From a virus (taxonomy: Duplodnaviria; Caudoviricetes): 41,501 nt of DNA. Under the pieces are notes generated by a model. The model made no database searches, was not told the origin of the DNA, and was given only the letters and a program-made list of their open reading frames with translations. Position numbers and translations under genes: made by a program. The DNA is taken from positions 1 to 41,501 of the IMG/VR virus record IMGVR_UViG_3300016265_000843. One strand, given 5' to 3'. Positions 3,064 to 40,116 of this stretch are shown here, piece after piece. Position 1 is the first letter of the stretch; every line of letters begins with the position of its first letter.

Positions 3064-3725
3064 CCATTGACACCACCCGCGACCTACTGATCAGCCTGTC
3101 GTCGCACATGGCCTACATGCAGGGCCAACTGGAAGCACACCACGAGCTTGATGACCTAGAGGACTTCTACTGGTATCGCGAGAGTGTCGCATTGCGGCAG
3201 AAGGTGACGGATGCCCTGGCAGAGGAGACGGCTGTGCCGCTGCCTGTAGCAGATGCGGTGGCGACAGCAGAAAGTGAATGCCTGTATGTATTGTCAACTG
3301 CAACAGACCGACCATTGACACCGCACTTGATTGAGGATTTTTATCGTCAGTTTTGCGGCATTATTGAGGGGCTTGTGGATGCCCTTGGTAAGGATAAACC
3401 GACTGAACCCGCACCCCCAGCTGATGGGGAGGTGGCGGAGTTGGTGGCTCAATTGAAATCGCGGCACTACGGGCCTGGCGCATTGGACCGCGCCGCCGAG
3501 CTGCTGGAGCGGCAGGCGCTGGTGCCGGTGGCTGTGAGCGAGCGGCCGTGGGAGCGCGAGGGTTGGTGCGACGCGGAGGGGAACTGCTGGCTGGGCGCAA
3601 ACGTGTTTGATGGTGCCCCGTCGACGTGGCTCTACGGCCCATCTGCTTGGGCCGAGCGATTCCCGCATATTCATCGTGTCTTGCTCCCCGCCCACGCCCT
3701 GCCGCTGCCGGAGGTGGGCGAGTAA
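3060..3725 (+). CDS. Hypothetical modular protein, paralog 2
   Basis: Shares its C-terminal domain with 2364..2837; stop overlaps the exonuclease ATG. Confidence 0.7.
   Translation: MTIDTTRDLLISLSSHMAYMQGQLEAHHELDDLEDFYWYRESVALRQKVTDALAEETAVPLPVADAVATAESECLYVLSTATDRPLTPHLIEDFYRQFCGIIEGLVDALGKDKPTEPAPPADGEVAELVAQLKSRHYGPGALDRAAELLERQALVPVAVSERPWEREGWCDAEGNCWLGANVFDGAPSTWLYGPSAWAERFPHIHRVLLPAHALPLPEVGE
3408..3544 (+). repeat. Intragenic direct repeat copy 2 (partner 2517..2647)
   Basis: Same two matching blocks as copy 1. Confidence 0.9.
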
Positions 3726-10768: not shown

Positions 10769-13529
10769 TCTCGTCAGCTCGACCATCCCCAACCTGATCC
10801 AGGGGGTCAGCCAGCAGCCTGATGCGCAACGGGATCCATCCCAGGGCGAAATCCAGATCAACGCGGTCTCGTCGCTGACCGACGGCCTGCGCAAGCGGGA
10901 CGGGTCCCGCGCCATCGCCCGGCTCTCCACCAGCTCCCTGGGCGATGTGCTGTTCCACCAGATCCTGCGCGACGCCGACGAGCAGTACCTGGTGGCGATC
11001 GCCAAGACGGCGATCCGGGTGTTTGAGCTGGATGGCACTGAGCGCACCGTCACGGCGCCCTACGGCTACGGCTACCTCTCCACGGTGGTGAGCGCCCGCT
11101 CTGACATCCGCGCCGCCTCGATCGCGGATTACACCTTCATCAGCAACACCAAGCGGGTGCCGGCGATGAAGGCCGCCCTGGCCCCGGCGGTGGCGCGGCC
11201 GGCCGCCCATGAGGCGCTGGTGTGGGTGAAGGCGGCCAACTACGGCCAGCGCTACACGGTCAACGTCAACGGCCAGCAGGTCACGGTGACCACGGCAGTG
11301 GCGCCGGTGGTGGTGAGCGGCACCACGACCACCGAGAACCGGATCTCTGCCGCCGAGATCGCCAGCCAGATCCGCGGCGCCCTGCTGGGCGGGGCGGCCA
11401 CGGCGCTGACGCTGGTGGGCTCCGCCACCACCCTGAACGGCACGGTCAACAACGTGGCCACCAGCACCGATGAGGGCGGCAGCGGGCTGACGGTGAACGT
11501 AACCGGCAACGGCACCGTGATCACTGCCGTGGCGATCGGCAACGCCGCCGGCACGGCCTACCGATCCGGGGACAAGGTGTACGTCGCCCGCAGCCTGCTG
11601 CAGGGCGGCACTGATGCCACGCCGGTGCAGGTGGCCACGATCAACACGGCGGCGGCCGGGCCCCTCACGGGGGTCTCGATCGCCCGCAGCGGATCGGTGC
11701 TGCACCTCACCAGTAGCAACGCGATCACGATCAGCGCCACCGATGCCCGGGCCAATGCGGACATCACGGCGATCCTGACCAGCGTGCAGGCGTTCACCGA
11801 GCTGCCAACGATCGCGCCGCAGGGCTACCAGGTGGAGATCATCGGCGACCCGGGCAACAAGTTCGATGGCTATTACGTCCAGTTCGTGCCCCGCAGCGGC
11901 ACGTTTGGAGAGGGCAGCTGGCAGGAGACGGTGAGCCCCGGCGTCGAGTACATGATCGACGAAACCACGATGCCGCACCTGTTGATCCGGCTGGCCAACG
12001 GCACCTTCTATTTCGGCCCGGCCAACCTCACCGTCCAGGGCGGCACCGTGATTCCAGCGTGGGGAAATCGTACAACCGGCGATTATGAAACTGCGCCGGA
12101 TCCCAGCTTTATTGGCTATCCGATCCAGGACGTTTTCATCTACAAGAACCGCCTGGGCTTCCTGGCGGATGAGAACGTGATCCTGAGCCGCACCCGCGAC
12201 TTTTTTGAGTTCTTCCCTGAAACCGTCACGGCGGTGCTCGACACCGATCCAATCGACATCACCGCCAGCAACAACCGGGTGGCCGTGCTGCGCTACGCGG
12301 TGCCGTACCAGGACGAGCTGATCGTCTTCTCGGATCAGATTCAGTTCCGCTTCAACGCCGCCGAGACGGTACTGACGCCAGCGACTGCGCAGATCACGGT
12401 GCTCACGCAGTACGAGATCGATCCCGACTGCCGGCCTGTCCCCGTCCAGGGCACCATCATCTTCTGCCAGGCCAATGGCCAATGGAGTCAGTTCCGCGAG
12501 TTCAGCGTGCGCGGCGTTGGCACCGCTCTCACGGCTGATGCCAGTGATCTGACGGTCTACGTCAGCAGCTACGTTCCTTCCGAAGTCTTCCGCATTGTTG
12601 CCAACGACACCGGCAATGTGTGGTTCGCTCTATCCGGCAAGACTGGCTATCAGAATCGCATCTACGTCTACAAATACTTCTACCGCAACAGCGGTAGCGG
12701 CCCCGAGCGAATCCAGAACAGCTGGAGCTATTGGCAGCTCAGTGGTGCCGCCAGCATCCTCTCGATCCTGTGCGTCCGCGAGACGCTTTACCTGCTGACG
12801 CAGTACGGCAGCGAGGTCTGGCTGGAGGCGGTGTCAGCGGCGGACCGCGCTGGCGGCCAGGCGCCCGCCCCCTATCAGCCACTGCTCGATCGGCGGGTCA
12901 GCACCACCACCGACACCCCGACCGCCATCCGCGTCGCCGCCGGCACCTACAACGCCACGACCAACACCACCACCTGGACGCTGCCCTACACAATCGCGGC
13001 GCCGACGCAGGCCTGGAGCCAGTTCGCGGCCGGCGTTGATGGCGGCGTGCTGCTGGCGGAGGCAAGCAGCGGCACCACACTCACCGCCCGGGGCAACTGG
13101 TCTGCGGCGCCGGTGGTCTTCGGGGAGCTCTACCTGTTCCGATACCGGTTCACCCGGTTCAAGCTCTACCAGGAGGCCAATGGCGGCCGCACGGCCAACA
13201 ACACGATGCGGACGCAGGTGCGTCACGCCAAGCTCCGCTATCACAGCACCCGCTACTTCGAGGCCTGGGTGACGGCCGAGCGGCGCGAGCCAGCCATGTA
13301 CGGCTTCGGCGGCATCGTGCTCGGCTCGCGCCTGTCGCAGCTCGGCAGCAACATCAGCAACGACATCGATGTGGCGACGCCTCGCTACATGGAAGGCGTG
13401 TTCCAGATCCCGATCATGAGCCGGGGCGAGAACGCGATCGTCGAGCTGCGCAACAACACGGCGGCACCCTGCCAGTTCTCCAGCTGCGACTGGGTGGGCC
13501 TGCTGACCGGCCAGGCCAGGAGCCTCTGA
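10761..13529 (+). CDS. Tail tubular protein B / nozzle (T7 gp12-like) with a ~95 aa insertion
   Basis: IPNLIQGVSQQPD, GLRKR, RDADEQY, ADYTFI.N, PSFIG, KNRLGFL, DTDPID motifs. Confidence 0.94.
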   Translation: MADLVSSTIPNLIQGVSQQPDAQRDPSQGEIQINAVSSLTDGLRKRDGSRAIARLSTSSLGDVLFHQILRDADEQYLVAIAKTAIRVFELDGTERTVTAPYGYGYLSTVVSARSDIRAASIADYTFISNTKRVPAMKAALAPAVARPAAHEALVWVKAANYGQRYTVNVNGQQVTVTTAVAPVVVSGTTTTENRISAAEIASQIRGALLGGAATALTLVGSATTLNGTVNNVATSTDEGGSGLTVNVTGNGTVITAVAIGNAAGTAYRSGDKVYVARSLLQGGTDATPVQVATINTAAAGPLTGVSIARSGSVLHLTSSNAITISATDARANADITAILTSVQAFTELPTIAPQGYQVEIIGDPGNKFDGYYVQFVPRSGTFGEGSWQETVSPGVEYMIDETTMPHLLIRLANGTFYFGPANLTVQGGTVIPAWGNRTTGDYETAPDPSFIGYPIQDVFIYKNRLGFLADENVILSRTRDFFEFFPETVTAVLDTDPIDITASNNRVAVLRYAVPYQDELIVFSDQIQFRFNAAETVLTPATAQITVLTQYEIDPDCRPVPVQGTIIFCQANGQWSQFREFSVRGVGTALTADASDLTVYVSSYVPSEVFRIVANDTGNVWFALSGKTGYQNRIYVYKYFYRNSGSGPERIQNSWSYWQLSGAASILSILCVRETLYLLTQYGSEVWLEAVSAADRAGGQAPAPYQPLLDRRVSTTTDTPTAIRVAAGTYNATTNTTTWTLPYTIAAPTQAWSQFAAGVDGGVLLAEASSGTTLTARGNWSAAPVVFGELYLFRYRFTRFKLYQEANGGRTANNTMRTQVRHAKLRYHSTRYFEAWVTAERREPAMYGFGGIVLGSRLSQLGSNISNDIDVATPRYMEGVFQIPIMSRGENAIVELRNNTAAPCQFSSCDWVGLLTGQARSL

Positions 13530-29066: not shown

Positions 29067-29363
29067 ATGGCCGACCTCGCCAAACAGCTCGAAGACCTCC
29101 ACGCTGCCGTCGTCGAAACCGTCAAGACCCGCATCGAAAACGGCGGCACCCGCGACGACAACGGCAACCTCCTCGAACCCCTCAGCAACGACGACCTCCG
29201 CGTCGCCCTGCAGCTGCTGAAGCAGAACCAGATCAGTGCCGCTGCCATGCCAAGCACCCCAACGGCAGACCTGGCGCGAATGGCCGGCAAGCTGAACTTC
29301 CAGACCCTGGAAGCAAAGGCCAAGGTCGTGCCCATCCGCGCAGACGACAAGCTCAGCGCCTGA
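29067..29363 (+). CDS. Terminase small subunit (T7 gp18-like)
   Basis: LEDLHAAV...DLRVALQLLKQNQI pattern; ATG at 29067. Confidence 0.75.
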   Translation: MADLAKQLEDLHAAVVETVKTRIENGGTRDDNGNLLEPLSNDDLRVALQLLKQNQISAAAMPSTPTADLARMAGKLNFQTLEAKAKVVPIRADDKLSA

Positions 29364-31119
29364 CGCCCCCGTAGGCCATGCCACGAGGCCGCGGCGTCCA
29401 ACCAAGCGCCAGAGCATCAATGCTGGCGCCCGTCTCGTCAAACCACGCTTTCAGGTTGGCCTCGTCGATCTCGTCTTGGCGAACCTGACGCGCCACCTTC
29501 TGGTCCTGCGCGGCGGCCTCCACAAACCAGCCGACGCCCAGCGATAAGGCATCAATCCGGTCGTCAAACTGCAGCGCCCCACGCTCGGTCGTGATTCGAC
29601 TGAGCTGGTACATCAACGAGCGGGCGTGGCCGCTGTCAGGATCGCGCTCAGCGCCGGCCCAGTCCTGTTGGATCACCTCTTGATTCACGACCAGGCGGTG
29701 CTGCTGCACCACTGGGGCCAGCACGTCGACGATCCGCCGTTCCTTCTGCCCTGACACGCGCTTCTCCTCGACCGAGCAGGGATGAACCGCCTTCACCACG
29801 GGTTGCAGCAGTGCGGTGAACATGCCATCGCCCAGGTTGGATTCCGCCACGATGGTGTTCACCTTCCACCGCAGCGCCTTCTGCGCCAGCAGCTGCAGAA
29901 CCTCTGGCTCGTACCCCCTGGTCGTGCCACCGGCCTCCAGCAGGAACAGGTTGCCATTCAGCTCTGCAATCACCGCCCAGGCCAGCTCATCGCTACCGCG
30001 GCCGGATGGATCCACCGCCAGGATGCACCGCCAGGTTTCCTTCTGCGGCACCCACCCCTGCACCAGCGCCGGGCCGTAATAGGTGCGGTCACTGCCGAGC
30101 CCCACGCATGGCAGGCTCTGCAGGCGGTGCTCATTGGCCGAGGACCACCCCACCACGTCTGGCAACGCCTTGCCATCCAGCGGCATCACGATCAGATCGC
30201 CCAGCCGGATCGGGTAGCGATCAAGCGTCGACAGGCGGCAGTTCAGCATCAGCTGCAGTTGCACGCCGGCTCGCGTCGTCCGCATTTCCCGGCTGCGCAG
30301 TTCCTGCTCGCCAAAACGCTCAGGGTCGGTCGGCTTGCCGGCCAGGCTCGGGTCGGCTTCAACCTCTGCTGCGATCAGTGGATCCAGCCCACCCTCGTAA
30401 CACTCCCACTGATCCGGGTCTGCCGGGTTGGGGTATCGCGCCGGCCAGTACCGGATCGCGTAGTTCCGCTCACGCACCAGCCGCAGATAGAGCGATGTCT
30501 CCAGGTGCGGCGTGCCGAGGAACATGATCATCCGCGGCAGATCCTGGCCTTCATCCGGCTTGAGGATCATTTCGAGCTCGGTCACGGCCTGCGCCAGGCG
30601 CTCCTGCTTGAGCGGCGTGATCGAGTTGTTCAGCGTCTCGATGTCGTCTGGGATGGCGCAGGTGCAGCGCTTGCCGGTCAATGCAGGCGACAGGATGCCA
30701 ACCGCTCGCACCGATGGGCTCTGATCAACGATCGCAGGCCCCACGTCAAAGGCCTTGGTTGAGCTCCGGCCATCGGCCCGTGGCTCCAGGCACCGCAGGA
30801 TGTCAATGTCGCGGATGCAGCGCTGCATGAAGGTCGTAACCTCCACCGCCTTCTCCAGCGTGCTGCCAGGGATCAGCACCTTCTCGTTGAACGGATCGAT
30901 CCGCAGCCGATGCAACGCCCGGAAGGCGGCCATGGTGCTCTTGGCCACACCACGAAAACCCACCGTGATCTGACGGTTTGGGCCGTTCTCCATCCAGTCG
31001 CAGATGCCCAGCTGCTGCTTGGTGGGCTCATCCGCCAGGTTCAGCTCCCGCAGCAGGTAGCAGACGAAGTACGGGAACCGCCCAGGGCCAATCTCAGGCG
31101 GGATCGGAGTCCAGCTCAC
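29353..31119 (-). CDS. Terminase large subunit (T7 gp19-like), inverted
   Basis: PTKQQ, GFRGVAKS (Walker A), IPDDIE (Walker B), LGTP, YWPARYP, VDPSGRGSDE, DDRIDAL nuclease motifs. Confidence 0.96.
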   Translation of the reverse strand: MSWTPIPPEIGPGRFPYFVCYLLRELNLADEPTKQQLGICDWMENGPNRQITVGFRGVAKSTMAAFRALHRLRIDPFNEKVLIPGSTLEKAVEVTTFMQRCIRDIDILRCLEPRADGRSSTKAFDVGPAIVDQSPSVRAVGILSPALTGKRCTCAIPDDIETLNNSITPLKQERLAQAVTELEMILKPDEGQDLPRMIMFLGTPHLETSLYLRLVRERNYAIRYWPARYPNPADPDQWECYEGGLDPLIAAEVEADPSLAGKPTDPERFGEQELRSREMRTTRAGVQLQLMLNCRLSTLDRYPIRLGDLIVMPLDGKALPDVVGWSSANEHRLQSLPCVGLGSDRTYYGPALVQGWVPQKETWRCILAVDPSGRGSDELAWAVIAELNGNLFLLEAGGTTRGYEPEVLQLLAQKALRWKVNTIVAESNLGDGMFTALLQPVVKAVHPCSVEEKRVSGQKERRIVDVLAPVVQQHRLVVNQEVIQQDWAGAERDPDSGHARSLMYQLSRITTERGALQFDDRIDALSLGVGWFVEAAAQDQKVARQVRQDEIDEANLKAWFDETGASIDALALGWTPRPRGMAYGGVRR

Positions 31120-31864: not shown

Positions 31865-31910
31865 CGGGGAATGCGCGTCTTGTTGTATGGCGTGGTGTTT
31901 GCAAATGGCC

Positions 31911-31951
31911 TCCTAGGAAACTCGTAGGATTTTGGTAGGAAAGCCCTAGGG
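31911..31951. repeat. Four 8-bp boxes at 11-bp period (TCCTAGGA consensus)
   Basis: TCCTAGGA 31911, TCGTAGGA 31922, TGGTAGGA 31933, CCCTAGGG 31944. Confidence 0.85.
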
Positions 31952-32857
31952 CCGCATTGGCAATCCCTTGTCTCACGGGTGGTCTTGCGAGAAGGCAAAA
32001 TAAGAACCCTGTCATACCAAGGGATTCCATTTCGGCTGGGCTAACCCACATTAGCCCGGAGCACTCCGACAACCCAACCCCCCACAGGGCCGTTTTCGAG
32101 CTCTCTAATTCTTAGATAAAGGGTTAATACCCCCGGGGCACCCGGGGACGGCCAGGCAACCCAGCTCGCAAGCTCGCTTCACACGAAGGATTAGGCCGGA
32201 AATGGGTTTCCCCCGTCGACAGATCCGGCCAGCAGCCACGCCCCACCCCACCTCCGGGGCCTTCTCACTGCATCACCCCTGCAGAAGCGCCAGGAAGGCC
32301 CCTCCGATGGGGTGGGGCTCCACTGACACCGATCCCTTCCTTCCGTGCCCTTCCTGCCCCTGCTGGGCACCTCTCCGCGTGTGTTCGTGTTCGATCGGTG
32401 TCCCAGCTTCACCCCTGCAGATCAGTTCGCACCCCTCGCACCTCCCTCATCGCAGACCGCTTTCCCGTTTTTGGGTCGCGTGATGTGGTGGGTTCCCAGC
32501 GCTGGGCGAGCTGCTCCGCCCCCCGTGCCCCGGTCGTTGCCGCCCCTGGGGGCGTCGCTGCCGCTGGCGGGGGCCTGCCTGCCCTGCTGCCGCAGCGCTA
32601 AGGCCAGGGCCCTGCCTGCGCCCGCCTCCGTTGCGGATTGTTGATCCGCTGCCACCTGCCCGGGCGCCAGCTGGCGGGGCCTGCTGGCCGGGCCGGGCGC
32701 CGGCTGCCGGCCTGCCCTGATCCCTGAATGTTAAGAGTTGCGACAGTTACCCACCGCCACCCGCCACCCGGTCGCCATCCGCCCCGATCCGCGCCCACAC
32801 TGTCGGCAGGTCTGCATAGCTGCAGGCCACACCACACCACACCAAGGAGGAGGACCA

Positions 32858-33408: not shown

Positions 33409-33469
33409 GGGGGCGGGCCCGGCCGGGGCCTGTAACCCGGCCACACCACACCACACGAGAGGACCACCG

Positions 33470-33736
33470 ATGACGACGACACGCGACGCGCTGACACGCG
33501 AACCGCTGCCAAACCCATGGCCCGGCAACCCCAACGCCTACGAATGCCCATGGGGCTGTAACGGCACCGGCTCGCTGCCGTGGTTTGCCCACGTGGCGGG
33601 CGGGGTCTGCTTCGCCTGCCACGGCAAGGGCTGGCAGCTAGGGCGGGGCAGCCGCGGCCCGATCAAGCGGACGCCACAGCAGACGCCAACCGGGCGCCGC
33701 TGGCGCCGGGAGGGCGGCCGGATCGTCCCGGCCTGA
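33470..33736 (+). CDS. Early Zn-finger protein (DnaJ-like CxxCxGxG pattern)
   Basis: CPWGCNGTG...GGVCFACHGKG. Confidence 0.7.
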   Translation: MTTTRDALTREPLPNPWPGNPNAYECPWGCNGTGSLPWFAHVAGGVCFACHGKGWQLGRGSRGPIKRTPQQTPTGRRWRREGGRIVPA

Positions 33737-33811
33737 TCGACGGCAGCACGGAGGCCCAGGGCGATGCCCGCGGCCTCTCTGCTGCCCTCAGGCAGCAACC
33801 ACACCACACCG
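33733..33811 (+). repeat. Structured intergenic direct repeat copy 1 (upstream of ardA)
   Basis: First 31 bp identical to 34403-34433; long hairpin plus CCACACCACACC. Confidence 0.9.
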
Positions 33812-33827
33812 CACAGGAGGGCCACCC

Positions 33828-34406
33828 ATGGCCACCACAACCACAACCAGGCCGCAAGCAATCGCCACCACATGCCCCGCCGTGGGCGTTTACGTGGCGT
33901 GTCTCGCCGCCTACAACGCCGGCCGCCTTCATGGGGCCTGGATTGATCTGGAGGAATGCCACGACGTCGACGACCTACAGGAGGCGATCGACTGGGTTCT
34001 GAAGGGCAGCCCTGAACCAGGGGCGGAGGAATGGGCCGTTCATGATTCCTGCGGCCTGCCCGGCTATCTGAGCCGGACGGAATGGCCGGAGCTGGCGCAG
34101 CTGATCGAGTGGGCGCAGGTCGCGGCCGAGCTCGGCGACGACGACGAGCTGGAGGCCTACCGGATCGAATGCGACAACCAGGGCGAGACCGTCACGATCG
34201 ACGCCTTCCGCGACGTTTACCGCGGGGTCCACACCAGCGGCGAGGACTACGCCCAGGAGCTGGCAGAGGAGATCGGCGCCATCCCGGCGGATGCCGGTTG
34301 GCCCGTCCGTTGCATCGATTGGGAGGCGGCTTGGCGAGAGCTCACCTTTGACGGCTACCGCGACGAGCGCTGCAGCAGCGGCGGGGTTCACGTGTTCTGC
34401 GGCTGA
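33828..34406 (+). CDS. ardA: Antirestriction protein ArdA (DNA mimic)
   Basis: VYVACLAAYNAGRLHGAWID, AEEWAVHD, EDYAQELAEE, IDWEAAWREL; very acidic. Confidence 0.92.
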   Translation: MATTTTTRPQAIATTCPAVGVYVACLAAYNAGRLHGAWIDLEECHDVDDLQEAIDWVLKGSPEPGAEEWAVHDSCGLPGYLSRTEWPELAQLIEWAQVAAELGDDDELEAYRIECDNQGETVTIDAFRDVYRGVHTSGEDYAQELAEEIGAIPADAGWPVRCIDWEAAWRELTFDGYRDERCSSGGVHVFCG

Positions 34407-34485
34407 TCGACGGCAGCACGGAGGCCCAGGGCGGCGACGCCCGCGGCTTCCCTGCTGCCCTCCAGGCAGCGACCACACCACACCG
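34403..34485 (+). repeat. Structured intergenic direct repeat copy 2 (downstream of ardA)
   Basis: Matches 33733..33811 with structure-preserving differences. Confidence 0.9.
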
Positions 34486-34497
34486 AGAGGATCACCG

Positions 34498-34845
34498 ATG
34501 ACGACCACGACACAGGAGCCCGCCTACGTCACGGCCGGGGAGTCGAACATGAAGCAATGGCCGCCACAGCGCCGCGCAGACGATGCGGCGAAGTGGGGAC
34601 CACTGACTCAAACCGAGCTCCTCCGGCGCCTGGTGGCTGAAGACCGTTGGCACAGGGACGCGTGCATGCGCCGAGGGATCAAAGACAGCCCGGCGTATTT
34701 CATCGCCTGGAAGGAGCTTCAGGACCGGCGGCATCGCTGCATCCAGCGCACCGGCCGCGACTGCGGCTGCGGCCTGCAGATTGACCGGCTGCCCCTCCAC
34801 GCCGAGAGGGTCGCCCGTGAGGTGCAAACGGCCACCCACTGGTGA
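34498..34845 (+). CDS. Hypothetical early protein
   Basis: ATG 34498 after CCACACCACACC-GAGAGG. Confidence 0.6.
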   Translation: MTTTTQEPAYVTAGESNMKQWPPQRRADDAAKWGPLTQTELLRRLVAEDRWHRDACMRRGIKDSPAYFIAWKELQDRRHRCIQRTGRDCGCGLQIDRLPLHAERVAREVQTATHW

Positions 34846-34909
34846 ACCACAGCGGCCCGCCGGAGCCGCACCCAATCCGGCGCCAACCACACCACCCCGA
34901 GGCCATCCA

Positions 34910-36049: not shown

Positions 36050-36068
36050 GCCTAGGAGTTTCCTAGGT
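36050..36068. promoter_or_regulatory. Two TCCTAGGA-type boxes at 11-bp period before the MarR2-integrase genes
   Basis: GCCTAGGA 36050, TCCTAGGT 36061. Confidence 0.7.
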
Positions 36069-36076
36069 GTTTCCCA

Positions 36077-37472: not shown

Positions 37473-37545
37473 GCTGCCGCAGCGATCGGCAGCGACGCGC
37501 AGCACGCAGCGCCCCAAAAACCCCAGATCCCTTATGCTTACTGGC

Positions 37546-37589
37546 GGGAGCATGGCGGAAATGGCAGACGCAGCGGACTTAAAAACCGC
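37546..37589 (+). other. Putative attP core: 5' half of tRNA-Leu(UAA)
   Basis: GGGAGCA-TG-GCGGAAATGGCAGACGC-A-GCGGA-CTTAAAA-ACCGC gives acceptor 5' strand, D arm and anticodon arm (TAA at 37580-37582); no T arm or acceptor 3' strand follows. Confidence 0.85.
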
Positions 37590-37740: not shown

Positions 37741-40062
37741 ATGCCGACGCAGCAGCAGATCGCATCTGCCCGGGCCATCCGCGCCCGCTTGATCAGCCGC
37801 GGCCAGGAGAGCTCAACCGAATACGGCAGGGCCCTGTTTGCCACCCATGGGCAGGCCCTGGCCGACGCGCTTGATGCGCTGATGACCCGCTTCGTGGTGG
37901 ACCCGGCCATCGCTGGCCCCCACTACGAGGCGCTGCCGCTGCTGCTGCACTTCGCCACGGTGGGCGTCCGGCCAGTCGCCAGCGTGGCGCTGACCAAGGT
38001 GCTCGACGGGATCAGCGCAAGGCATCGCCACCGCAAACTGGCCATGGCCATCGGCCGCGCCATCGAGGACGAGGTGCGAGCCGGGCGGATCAAGCACCAC
38101 GACCGGGACACCCTGCGGCTCTTGCTCCGTCATGAAGGCAAGCGAACGGTGCTGGCCCCCAGCACGTTGCGCAGCCTCCGCCTACCAGCGGATCGATGGA
38201 CTCAGCACGATCGGGTATCGGTGGGATCCCTGCTGCTGCGGCTGATCGTCTCCGAAACCGACCTGGTGCAGATCGTCTCCCAGGCAGTGCGGGGCGTCAT
38301 GGTGCTGATGGTGGAGGCAACACCGGCGACGCTGGAGCTGGTGCGCTCGATGCCCCTGGACATCAGGCCAGAACGCGGCCGGCCCCAGCTGACGCCACCC
38401 GAACCACGAGACGGTTACGCCGGCCTGGTGCGACGGCGCGACGGCGCGTCGACGGATTACATGCAGCAGGCCGGCCCGGCTGCGCTGGCGGCCGTGCAAC
38501 GGCTGGAGGCCCAGCCGGTGACGGTTGACCCCTGGATGGCCGATGTGCAGCAGCAGGCATGGGCGGCAAACATCCGCGGCCTGTTCTCTGTGACCCGCGA
38601 TCCGGCGCAAGCTCCGCCGCGACCGCACGACGCGACCGACCACGAGGCGATGGCCAACTGGAGACGGCAGGAGCGGGCCGCCTGGGCTGATGGGCGGGAG
38701 CATGGCCGTGCCCGCGAGCGCATTGACGAAGCGATCCGCGAGGCGCAGTGCCTCGCCGGACAATCGATCTGGTTCCGCTACGACCTGGACTTTCGCGGGC
38801 GGGTCTACACCGCCAATCGCACGACCACCCATCAGGGGCCTGACCACGAAAAGGCGCTGCTGTGGCTGCCGCCCGAGCCCTGCGACGAGGAGGCCGCCGA
38901 CTGGATGCTGCGGGCCTGCGCTGGCCACTGGGGGCTGAGCCGTGCCAGCTGGGATGAACGGCTGCGTTGGGGGCGGGACAACATCGATCGGCTGGTCGCC
39001 GTGGCCGACGCGCCGCTGGATCAGGTGGAGCTCTGGCGTGATGCCGCCGATCCCTGGCAGTTCCTGCAGATGGCCCGCGCCTTTCGGCTGTGGCTGGGGG
39101 ACCCGGCAACCCCGATCGGTGCGCCGGTGCGCCTCGATCAGACCACCTCTGGCCTGGGCATCGCCGCAGCCCTGGTGCGCGACGAGCGATTGGCGCGTGA
39201 AACCAATCTGATCGGGTCTACCCGGCACGACATCTATCAGCGGGTGGCCGATGAGCTGGTGGCCGCGCTGCAGCGTGAGCTGGAGGCGGGGGTGCCATCC
39301 CATCAACGCCATGCCGCGCAGTGGCTGGAGATCGGCATTACCCGCTCGCTGTGCAAGGAGCCGGTGATGGCGGCCATCTATGGAGGGCAGTTCCAGAGCC
39401 TGTTCGATGGTCTGGCGGACCACCTGCGCAATGCGGCGCTGCCAAAGCGGGCCAGTGAATACGAGCGCAGCGTGGTGATTCCGGCGCGTTTTCTGGCGAA
39501 GCTGATGAAGGAGACCCTTCAGCCAGAGCTGGCGCCGTTGCTGGCGCTGAAGGACTGGCTGAAGGGAGCCAGCGCCGCCGTGGTGAAACAGCAGCAGCAG
39601 TTGCGCTGGACGTCGCCGAGCGGTTTCCCGGTGGTGCTAGGCGGCAAGCGGCGGGCTCATGCGCCAGCTCACACGCTGCTGCATGGCTCCAGGGGATGGG
39701 AGACACCTGACAGCGACGAGCGCCGGCGCGAGCTGAGCGTGCTGGCAACCAACCGAAGCATCACCGCCAACCTGGTGCATTCGTTTGACGCGGCCTTGGT
39801 CCATGCCGTGATCTGCAGGGCTGAAGCAGTGAGCGCACACGTCCTGACAAATCACGATTGCTTTGCCGTGACGCCAGCTCGGGCTCAGTGGCTGCACCAA
39901 ACGCTGCTTGGCGAGTTGCGTTCCCTTTACATGCCGGACTGGCTTGATGAAATCCGAGCCGAGATCACGACACACAGCGGCATTCCTGGCCTGCCAGCGC
40001 CGCCAATGGTTGGCACGCTGAACCCGGCTCGCATCGGCCAGAACCCCTACGTCTTTTCCTAG
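37741..40062 (+). CDS. Single-subunit T7-like DNA-directed RNA polymerase
   Basis: DFRGRVY, DPWQFL, PVRLDQTTSG (motif A), RSLCKEPVMAAIYGG (motif B), WTSPSGFPV, NLVHSFDA, NHDCF (motif C); start 37741 preferred over 37696. Confidence 0.95.
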   Translation: MPTQQQIASARAIRARLISRGQESSTEYGRALFATHGQALADALDALMTRFVVDPAIAGPHYEALPLLLHFATVGVRPVASVALTKVLDGISARHRHRKLAMAIGRAIEDEVRAGRIKHHDRDTLRLLLRHEGKRTVLAPSTLRSLRLPADRWTQHDRVSVGSLLLRLIVSETDLVQIVSQAVRGVMVLMVEATPATLELVRSMPLDIRPERGRPQLTPPEPRDGYAGLVRRRDGASTDYMQQAGPAALAAVQRLEAQPVTVDPWMADVQQQAWAANIRGLFSVTRDPAQAPPRPHDATDHEAMANWRRQERAAWADGREHGRARERIDEAIREAQCLAGQSIWFRYDLDFRGRVYTANRTTTHQGPDHEKALLWLPPEPCDEEAADWMLRACAGHWGLSRASWDERLRWGRDNIDRLVAVADAPLDQVELWRDAADPWQFLQMARAFRLWLGDPATPIGAPVRLDQTTSGLGIAAALVRDERLARETNLIGSTRHDIYQRVADELVAALQRELEAGVPSHQRHAAQWLEIGITRSLCKEPVMAAIYGGQFQSLFDGLADHLRNAALPKRASEYERSVVIPARFLAKLMKETLQPELAPLLALKDWLKGASAAVVKQQQQLRWTSPSGFPVVLGGKRRAHAPAHTLLHGSRGWETPDSDERRRELSVLATNRSITANLVHSFDAALVHAVICRAEAVSAHVLTNHDCFAVTPARAQWLHQTLLGELRSLYMPDWLDEIRAEITTHSGIPGLPAPPMVGTLNPARIGQNPYVFS

Positions 40063-40116
40063 GACTCTCCTAAGACGGTCCTAGGTGTTGCCTAGGAGGC
40101 ATCAACGCTGTACGTT
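40057..40116 (+). promoter_or_regulatory. Four TCCTAGGA-type boxes at 11-bp period overlapping a sigma70-like promoter
   Basis: TCCTAGGA 40057, TCCTAAGA 40068, TCCTAGGT 40079, GCCTAGGA 40090; TTGCCT (40088)-17 bp-TACGTT (40111). Confidence 0.8.

Follow-up and report, generated by a model that had tools for sequence, protein, structure and literature searches.

The early region of bacteriophage T7 carries ocr, a gene for a DNA mimic, and the matching region of the virus described here is occupied by ardA. PeSL cassettes of T4-type phages are repeated intergenic regulatory modules that carry a promoter and serve as recombination handles in the shuffling of small early genes. The element that brackets ardA is likewise a repeated module and apparently a recombination handle, but no sigma-70-like promoter was found at its two copies in the window. 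Alternative folds are a feature of the lambda cIII leader.

As excerpts from PMC8708148, PMC1540722 and PMC3867540 describe them, the RNase III signals of T7 early mRNA, R1.1 among them, are imperfect hairpins between genes of the early region with an internal loop at the cut and one arm of about 11 bp, and single cuts leave a protective hairpin at the 3' end. The element reported here is similar in each of these points, its cut at the internal loop and the 3' protective hairpin being predicted. Unlike the T7 signals, it possesses a third strand, through which a conserved alternative hairpin can form that starts exactly at the predicted cut, its copies within one genome are near-identical repeats, its stem usually includes the upstream stop codon, and it misses several of the proximal- and distal-box preferences of the E. 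coli enzyme. In the Staphylococcus aureus cspA leader, RNase III cuts a long hairpin and leaves a stabler mRNA with a short 5'-terminal hairpin, an outcome also predicted here; according to the portion of PMC3386247 that covers it, that 5' leader occurs once, on the chromosome, and its cleavage also sets the RBS free, whereas the present element recurs between genes and leaves the RBS uncovered. RNase III also acts on a phage leader in lambda cIII, by a mention in PMC5829567, as it is predicted to do here, but there its binding exposes the RBS and in this element the RBS is not paired. RNase III sites in T7-like early regions and 5' hairpins made by RNase III are already known, and by its most likely function, as judged from sequence, the element would be a variant of the phage RNase III processing signals and a candidate member of that group.

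The repeat around ardA and its family

The window, which is the whole 41.5-kb stretch of DNA that was analysed, is a virus record of 97% completeness and codes for a T7-like RNA polymerase, integrase, portal, capsid and terminase. Its nearest isolate is the freshwater Synechococcus phage S-SRP02 (MW822601.1; PMC8790148), whose RNA polymerase is 45% identical. The two share a reversed terminase unit, the large terminase of the window (29353-31119) being on the minus strand opposite to the structural genes, and the order integrase then polymerase; because of this shared gene layout with the nearest isolate, the host is inferred to be a freshwater picocyanobacterium. The terminase unit and the integrase are separated by a series of small genes, taken from its position to be the early region, and the repeat and ardA sit within it. 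The tyrosine integrase (PF00589, with PHROG integrase matches) lies 2 kb downstream of the repeat, and directly past it the sequence at 37545-37585 resembles, as judged by eye, the 5' part of a tRNA-Leu gene and is likely to be the attP core. A 43-nt inverted pair rich in CCTAGG is present at the start of the reversed unit (31908-31950) and immediately 3' of the RNA polymerase gene (40058-40100), as well as near 36050-36070, and possibly represents phage promoter or operator sites.

The original prediction placed a direct repeat of about 80 bp on either side of ardA, and it is there as described, with copy 1 at 33733-33811 and copy 2 at 34403-34485; these and all features given below for the locus are on the plus strand. 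The copies are 670 nt apart, are 90.4% identical over 83 columns and have 31 identical bases in common. Besides this pair the window has one further exact repeat of at least 30 nt, and the pair was missing from the 20 largest families of a general repeat scan of the window. The longest exact repeat of the window falls inside a coding duplication (2512-2803 and 3403-3703) with stretches of 50-79 nt at 90% identity. Each copy opens at the stop codon of the preceding gene and closes in a C/A-rich leader. Copy 1 opens at the stop (33734-33736) of an early gene of 88 aa without a family match (33470-33736), and is followed by the leader and AGGAG-type RBS (33798-33827) of ardA (33828-34406, 192 aa). 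Copy 2 starts at the ardA stop codon (34404-34406) and precedes another early gene without a family match (34498-34845, 115 aa). The leader tract CCACACCAC occurs at 32827, 33441, 33799, 34473, 34887 and 36414 and stands before six early genes, one of which is the integrase. The product of 33828-34406 matches PF07275 (E 5e-22, 79.5 bits against a cut-off of 27) and is acidic, with 38 D+E to 11 K+R, so the ORF is identified as ardA and anti-restriction activity is predicted for it.

The repeat belongs to a spacer family of the early region of S-SRP02-like T7 cyanophages that had not been catalogued previously. Ninety distinct copies were gathered, and three more are found in cultured S-SRP02 (11602-11682, 12016-12093 and 12524-12602), which unlike the window has no ardA annotated in the stretch examined. 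Viral contigs were searched with two degenerate patterns and genomes with one; together with earlier loci this yielded 107 distinct rows, of which 19 were put aside by eye as chance hits after the sequences had been viewed, a procedure that somewhat inflates the contrast between the two sets. These chance hits comprise 17 from unrelated bacterial genomes, one from a cyanobacterial bin (L158) and one viral (L116). Leader-bearing hits from integrase-anchored loci and three hand-picked ones were added and one hit (L060 at 4330) was dropped, and the 90 elements are what stood after removal of duplicates. Depending on the cut-off they cluster into 33, 13 or 6 groups and are far from independent.

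A covariance model was built and searched, and homologous elements were found in many related phages: it gave 61 strong matches in 59 sources, every one on the coding strand and upstream of the integrase, three of the 61 being in S-SRP02. Copy 1 scores 68.5 bits and copy 2 scores 55.6 bits, both being in the seed of the model. Among the matches listed, the integrase-anchored loci have the same layout and differing sequences. The element recurs several times per genome. A stop codon lies upstream in 85 of the 90 copies and an ATG 33-71 nt downstream in 85, while a word resembling a Shine-Dalgarno (SD) sequence is present in 11 of 85 leaders. When host-family genomes were searched, the model matched 2 of 141, each with four copies clustered on one contig, and the element-bearing contig of one of them (G001) also has a T7-like RNA polymerase.

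No known family accounts for the repeat: a search of the window against Rfam 15 gave no match at the gathering threshold, the best local score being 25.6 bits against a cut-off of 71. When copy 1 was compared by blastn with 50,697 phage records, none covered 80% of the query and the best E was 0.3; since blastn found no family members, a structure model was needed. The main text of the S-SRP02 paper, two 2026 preprints and PMC5737381 contain, in the parts consulted, no description of the element, which their supplements could list; literature searches turned up no account of it either.

Two conserved folds

Folding confirmed the long hairpin claimed for both copies, at -42.9 and -46.0 kcal/mol. 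In copy 1 it spans 33739-33789 and contains a fixed 2-nt internal loop; in copy 2 it is closed by a GNRA tetraloop. The original prediction had also stated that the differences between the copies preserve pairing, and every difference does so. Because the stem differences are one-sided, with G-C in one copy and G.U in the other, they are weak evidence when taken alone, and the idea of selection on RNA structure is borne out mainly by covariation in the relatives and not by the window pair. Among 29 copies, both partners vary at 12 of 16 pairs, a value reached by none of 500 shuffles, and pairing amounts to 90% against 39-54% in slid controls; related sequences can outdo shuffles without any structure, and the measures based on pair type are the conservative ones. 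A second set, partly overlapping and fitted to the model, gave changes on both sides in 11 of 16 pairs.

The fixed core consists of a C-G pair, a position that is A-U or C.U, and a C.C mismatch, and eight to nine pairs below it G-A pairs with U-C. The lower arm has 9-10 positions with two tolerated mismatches and is followed by the 2-nt internal loop; the upper arm is short in many copies, with 20-22 nt between the cuts in 38 of the 90. As a sign of strand, G.U was counted 68 times and A.C three times at 13 well-paired positions; at one lower-arm position A.C is found 35 times and U.G 15 times. The antisense strand usually folds lower (sense is lower in just 26 of 90), an energy comparison confounded by the C.C mismatch, which turns into G.G on the antisense strand. 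The GNRA loop survives a change from GCGA to GCAA. The repeat is a real RNA element under selection.

It had further been claimed that the lower arm's 3' strand has a second possible partner, a downstream copy of the first, with which it would form a mutually exclusive hairpin. This alternative hairpin (33781-33796 in copy 1, where 33781-33786 pairs with 33791-33796; 34454-34470 in copy 2, where 34454-34459 pairs with 34465-34470) turned out to be conserved, and its arms co-vary across the family. With at least five Watson-Crick pairs from position +1 it is present in 78 of 90 elements against one of 19 chance hits, and in 17% and 5% of the shuffles of two controls; its third strand was absent from all search patterns. 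When tails were swapped between elements the hairpin was kept in 89.7% of same-class pairs and in 0.8% of different-class pairs. It is also paired at -1 in 60 of 88 elements, and at -2 in 2 of 88. The Watson-Crick and tail-swap tests replaced one that asked for a flush 5' end, which was weak (87 of 90 against 75.5% in shuffles).

For the two copies of the window, taken as uncut RNA, the alternative fold is less stable than the long hairpin by 2.6 and 3.6 kcal/mol. Across the family the median gap is 1.35 kcal/mol, with a gap of 2 or less in 52 of 88 elements, and in 34 of 88 no more than 0.5 kcal/mol separates the alternative fold from the minimum; given such nearly equal folds, it may be that many copies are not stably in the cleavable form. 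A conformational switch that sequesters the RBS, one of the functions first considered, is not borne out, since neither fold covers the start region or pairs the RBS in a conserved manner, and the downstream part of the CCACA tract is not conservedly paired in either. It is more likely that the two folds are sequential, one before and one after the cut, than that they form a ligand switch. A riboswitch was rejected on the same lack of cover over the start region and on the spread of 87 downstream ORFs over 38 families. An intrinsic terminator was also rejected, there being no terminator-like site at either copy and the tails being C/A-rich with no U tract.

Predicted processing by RNase III and its rivals

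A weak consensus for the RNase III of E. coli, with two bases between the staggered cuts, has been published (PMC4357697, in part). Of 15 registers compared by sliding it along the hairpins, the one at the internal loop gave the sole top fit in 76 of 90 elements and in 28 of 33 cluster representatives. This register puts the cut of the 3' strand at 33780/33781 in copy 1 and 34453/34454 in copy 2, with staggered partner cuts at 33749/33750 and 34419/34420, all of them predicted from the scan. At positions free of the search patterns the elements have G-11 (90 of 90), A-10 (89), U+8 (90), C+7 (83) and C+9 (84), and of these U+8 is found in 4 and C+9 in 3 of the 19 chance hits. The 13 copies without the TGA triplet still keep the G (13 of 13) and the A (12 of 13). 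Further agreement with the boxes of the E. coli enzyme is seen in G+4 in all 90, a position partly fixed by the patterns, in W+3 in 78, and in C or U at +9 together with G-11 in 90. Bases preferred by this enzyme but mostly absent are A+2, found in only 12 of 90 with C in 78, and U+10, found in 26; at -12 a U stands in place of A in 77 of 90, and +1 is a G-C pair in all 90 where E. coli RNase III prefers AU or UA. On the eight unconstrained distal positions this register leads only narrowly, with 5.21 at shift 0 against 4.62 at shift -2. On the full consensus the chance hits, at 11.6 of 22, score near the 12.9 of the elements because part of the core had been set by the search patterns. Targets from E. 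coli are cut by cyanobacterial RNase III enzymes, at times at neighbouring bases, as noted in sections of PMC5829567, so that the mismatches to the E. coli rules neither refute nor support cleavage. The predicted 3' cut coincides with the start of the alternative hairpin, and since the U at -1 pairs in 60 of 88 elements the cut could fall one base earlier.

It is suggested here that host RNase III would bind the lower arm of about 10 bp and cut at the 2-nt internal loop on the 3' strand. After a single cut the upstream message would end in a 3' hairpin formed by the upper stem, while the strand set free would base-pair with its partner's downstream copy, so that the next message would begin with a blunt 5' stem, one that might hinder RNase J and 5'-end-dependent RNase E. 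The copies could, as a side effect, act as recombination handles. We consider it probable that RNase III cuts the element and that the downstream mRNA then refolds into a 5'-terminal protective hairpin, a view drawn from the register fit, the start of the alternative hairpin at the predicted cut, the precedents and the enzymes of the host. The precedents, as far as the cited portions go, are single-strand RNase III cuts that leave 3' protective hairpins (PMC1540722, PMC3867540; T7 R1.1, PMC8708148), the sufficiency of one box set for RNase III (PMC1540722), and the stabilising 5' hairpin that RNase III processing yields in S. aureus cspA, where a block of RNase J1 was suggested (PMC3386247). 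Cyanobacteria possess RNase III, RNase E and RNase J, the last of which degrades RNA with non-triphosphorylated 5' ends, according to parts of PMC10989914. An RNase III domain (PF14622) is above its cut-off in all three genomes with element-bearing contigs (G001, G025, G002), the host of the window itself being inferred. Duplexes predicted for the host pre-16S stalk at 25 loci were noisy, and the cuts there are unmapped. A broader scheme, in which the element is a portable module that is cut once, caps both ends, is gated by ribosomes terminating at the stop within the stem, and also acts as a recombination joint for anti-defence genes such as ardA in the first-injected region, is put forward as doubtful.

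The position of the stop codon could mean that the element responds to translation. A ribosome at the upstream stop would melt the lower arm and allow the alternative hairpin to form, so that the element alternates between one state that can be cleaved (or is protein-bound) and another that cannot be cleaved, and processing or downstream translation depends on upstream translation, an arrangement compatible with cleavage by RNase III. In 72 of 90 elements the long hairpin has at its base (offset -12) the stop of an upstream ORF of at least 35 aa, and in 13 this stop is 4-8 nt further upstream; the small median gap in energy between the folds would suit such a device. The window copies, however, have their stop at -16 and the larger gaps given above, the start region is sequestered by neither fold, SD-like words are few in the leaders, and on its own this would leave the invariant C.C mismatch and the G-A/U-C pairs unexplained; we regard it as rather unlikely. 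Improbable, in our view, is a roadblock that dispenses with RNase III. Decay would begin elsewhere, for example with RNase E, and RNase J would degrade the first strand in the 5' to 3' direction until the released strand formed the alternative hairpin and halted it, the long hairpin additionally blocking 3' exonucleases. This would require the same three-strand anatomy and could tolerate the mismatches to the E. coli rules, and RNase J is present and apparently essential in cyanobacteria, as stated in parts of PMC10989914, but it does not predict the register fit or a fixed 2-nt loop ten pairs above the invariant G-A/U-C pairs. The G-C pair at +1 lies at a proximal-box position where substitutions can block catalysis and not binding, and the title of a table in PMC1540722 on proximal-box substitutions names a GC pair. 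The site might then be bound by a phage or host RNA-binding protein, or by RNase III without cleavage, and so tune early translation, for which the regulation proposed for lambda cIII, mentioned in PMC5829567, would be a precedent; with no RBS occlusion to relieve and an alternative hairpin that begins at the predicted cut, we think this very improbable. The reading that has the element cut by RNase III and refolded afterwards is the one we prefer.

A function at the DNA level, in which the hairpin serves in cassette movement as an attC-like single-strand recombination site or a single-strand promoter, the nearby tyrosine integrase possibly taking part, appears to be the least probable of all. 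Integron attC sites have conserved GTT-type core ends, and integrases of the IntI type have an extra helix. No GTT-type end is present among the conserved columns of the element alignment, and the integrase 2 kb downstream adjoins the tRNA-like att piece. It speaks for this idea that gene content varies at the element, that the site lacking ardA bears a single copy, and that the antisense strand folds at least equally well. Against it stand the strict coding-strand orientation between stop and leader and the maintenance of a GNRA loop through the change of GCGA to GCAA. Genes also come and go at leaders free of the element (33477-33485), and one run (X9) carries ardA without copy 2.

If processing by RNase III takes place as suggested, the element would be a compact device for dividing a polycistronic message into parts that are each protected, in hosts with both RNase J and RNase E, and its copies would be the first cyanobacterial set of RNase III targets for which the cut is predicted to the base. 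There is a lack of tools with which to tune transcript stability, as remarked in a part of PMC5829567. S-SRP02 on Synechococcus SR-C1 is a cultured pair with three copies, which makes the model directly testable.

Gain and loss of ardA and neighbouring spacers

The suggestion that the repeats make ardA an excisable or amplifiable cassette holds as far as gain and loss are concerned. In a relative (L037/L039) with polymerase and integrase 96-97% identical to those of the window, ardA is missing and the 88-aa gene is joined to the 115-aa gene via one element copy. The single copy has the stem letters of copy 1 and the leader letters of copy 2; in L037 it could reflect assembly collapse of the repeat. 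This pair shows that ardA was gained or lost between two copies, and gives an example of the turnover of an anti-restriction gene at such spacers. In run X8 the contigs with ardA have a depth of 4.5-12.5 against 47-64 in most flanking bins, values that are per contig and give no copy number, and that are only consistent with a majority lacking ardA. A different sequence follows copy 1 in run X17, and further relatives carry other genes between element copies. The joints 33810 to 34409 (X8) and 33788 to 34463 (X4) have fewer than 30 letters on one side and were not counted as proof of deletion. For tandem amplification no back-joint was seen across the contigs of eight runs, a kind of data that cannot show absence. 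In the RNA runs X18-X20, 6-14% of the words were present.

A special tie between the repeat and ardA does not hold, as the element precedes 38 gene families. An ardA-specific element was likewise rejected, since among 34 ArdA loci only a twin of the window (L001) and one other (L002) have the element; the model was run on 30 of these 34, and no strong match was found near ArdA genes of unrelated elements. In L002, the genome of a second phage of the group, an ArdA 65% identical to that of the window is the first early gene (2216-2800), with an element downstream and none upstream. At 33441-33485, relatives (L039, runs X2 and X9) have an extra gene of about 400 nt between the leader and the 88-aa gene, an instance of a gene being acquired or lost where the leader has no hairpin repeat.

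A second type of spacer is found at 34852-34882, where two overlapping short hairpins lie between a stop codon and a C/A leader. Its 26-nt core had no match in 121 host-family genomes and is exactly kept in 61 viral stretches representing 45 distinct contexts, with a depth of 200-1080 in three runs. So nearly invariant a sequence suggests that this spacer may work by a mechanism unlike that of the main element.
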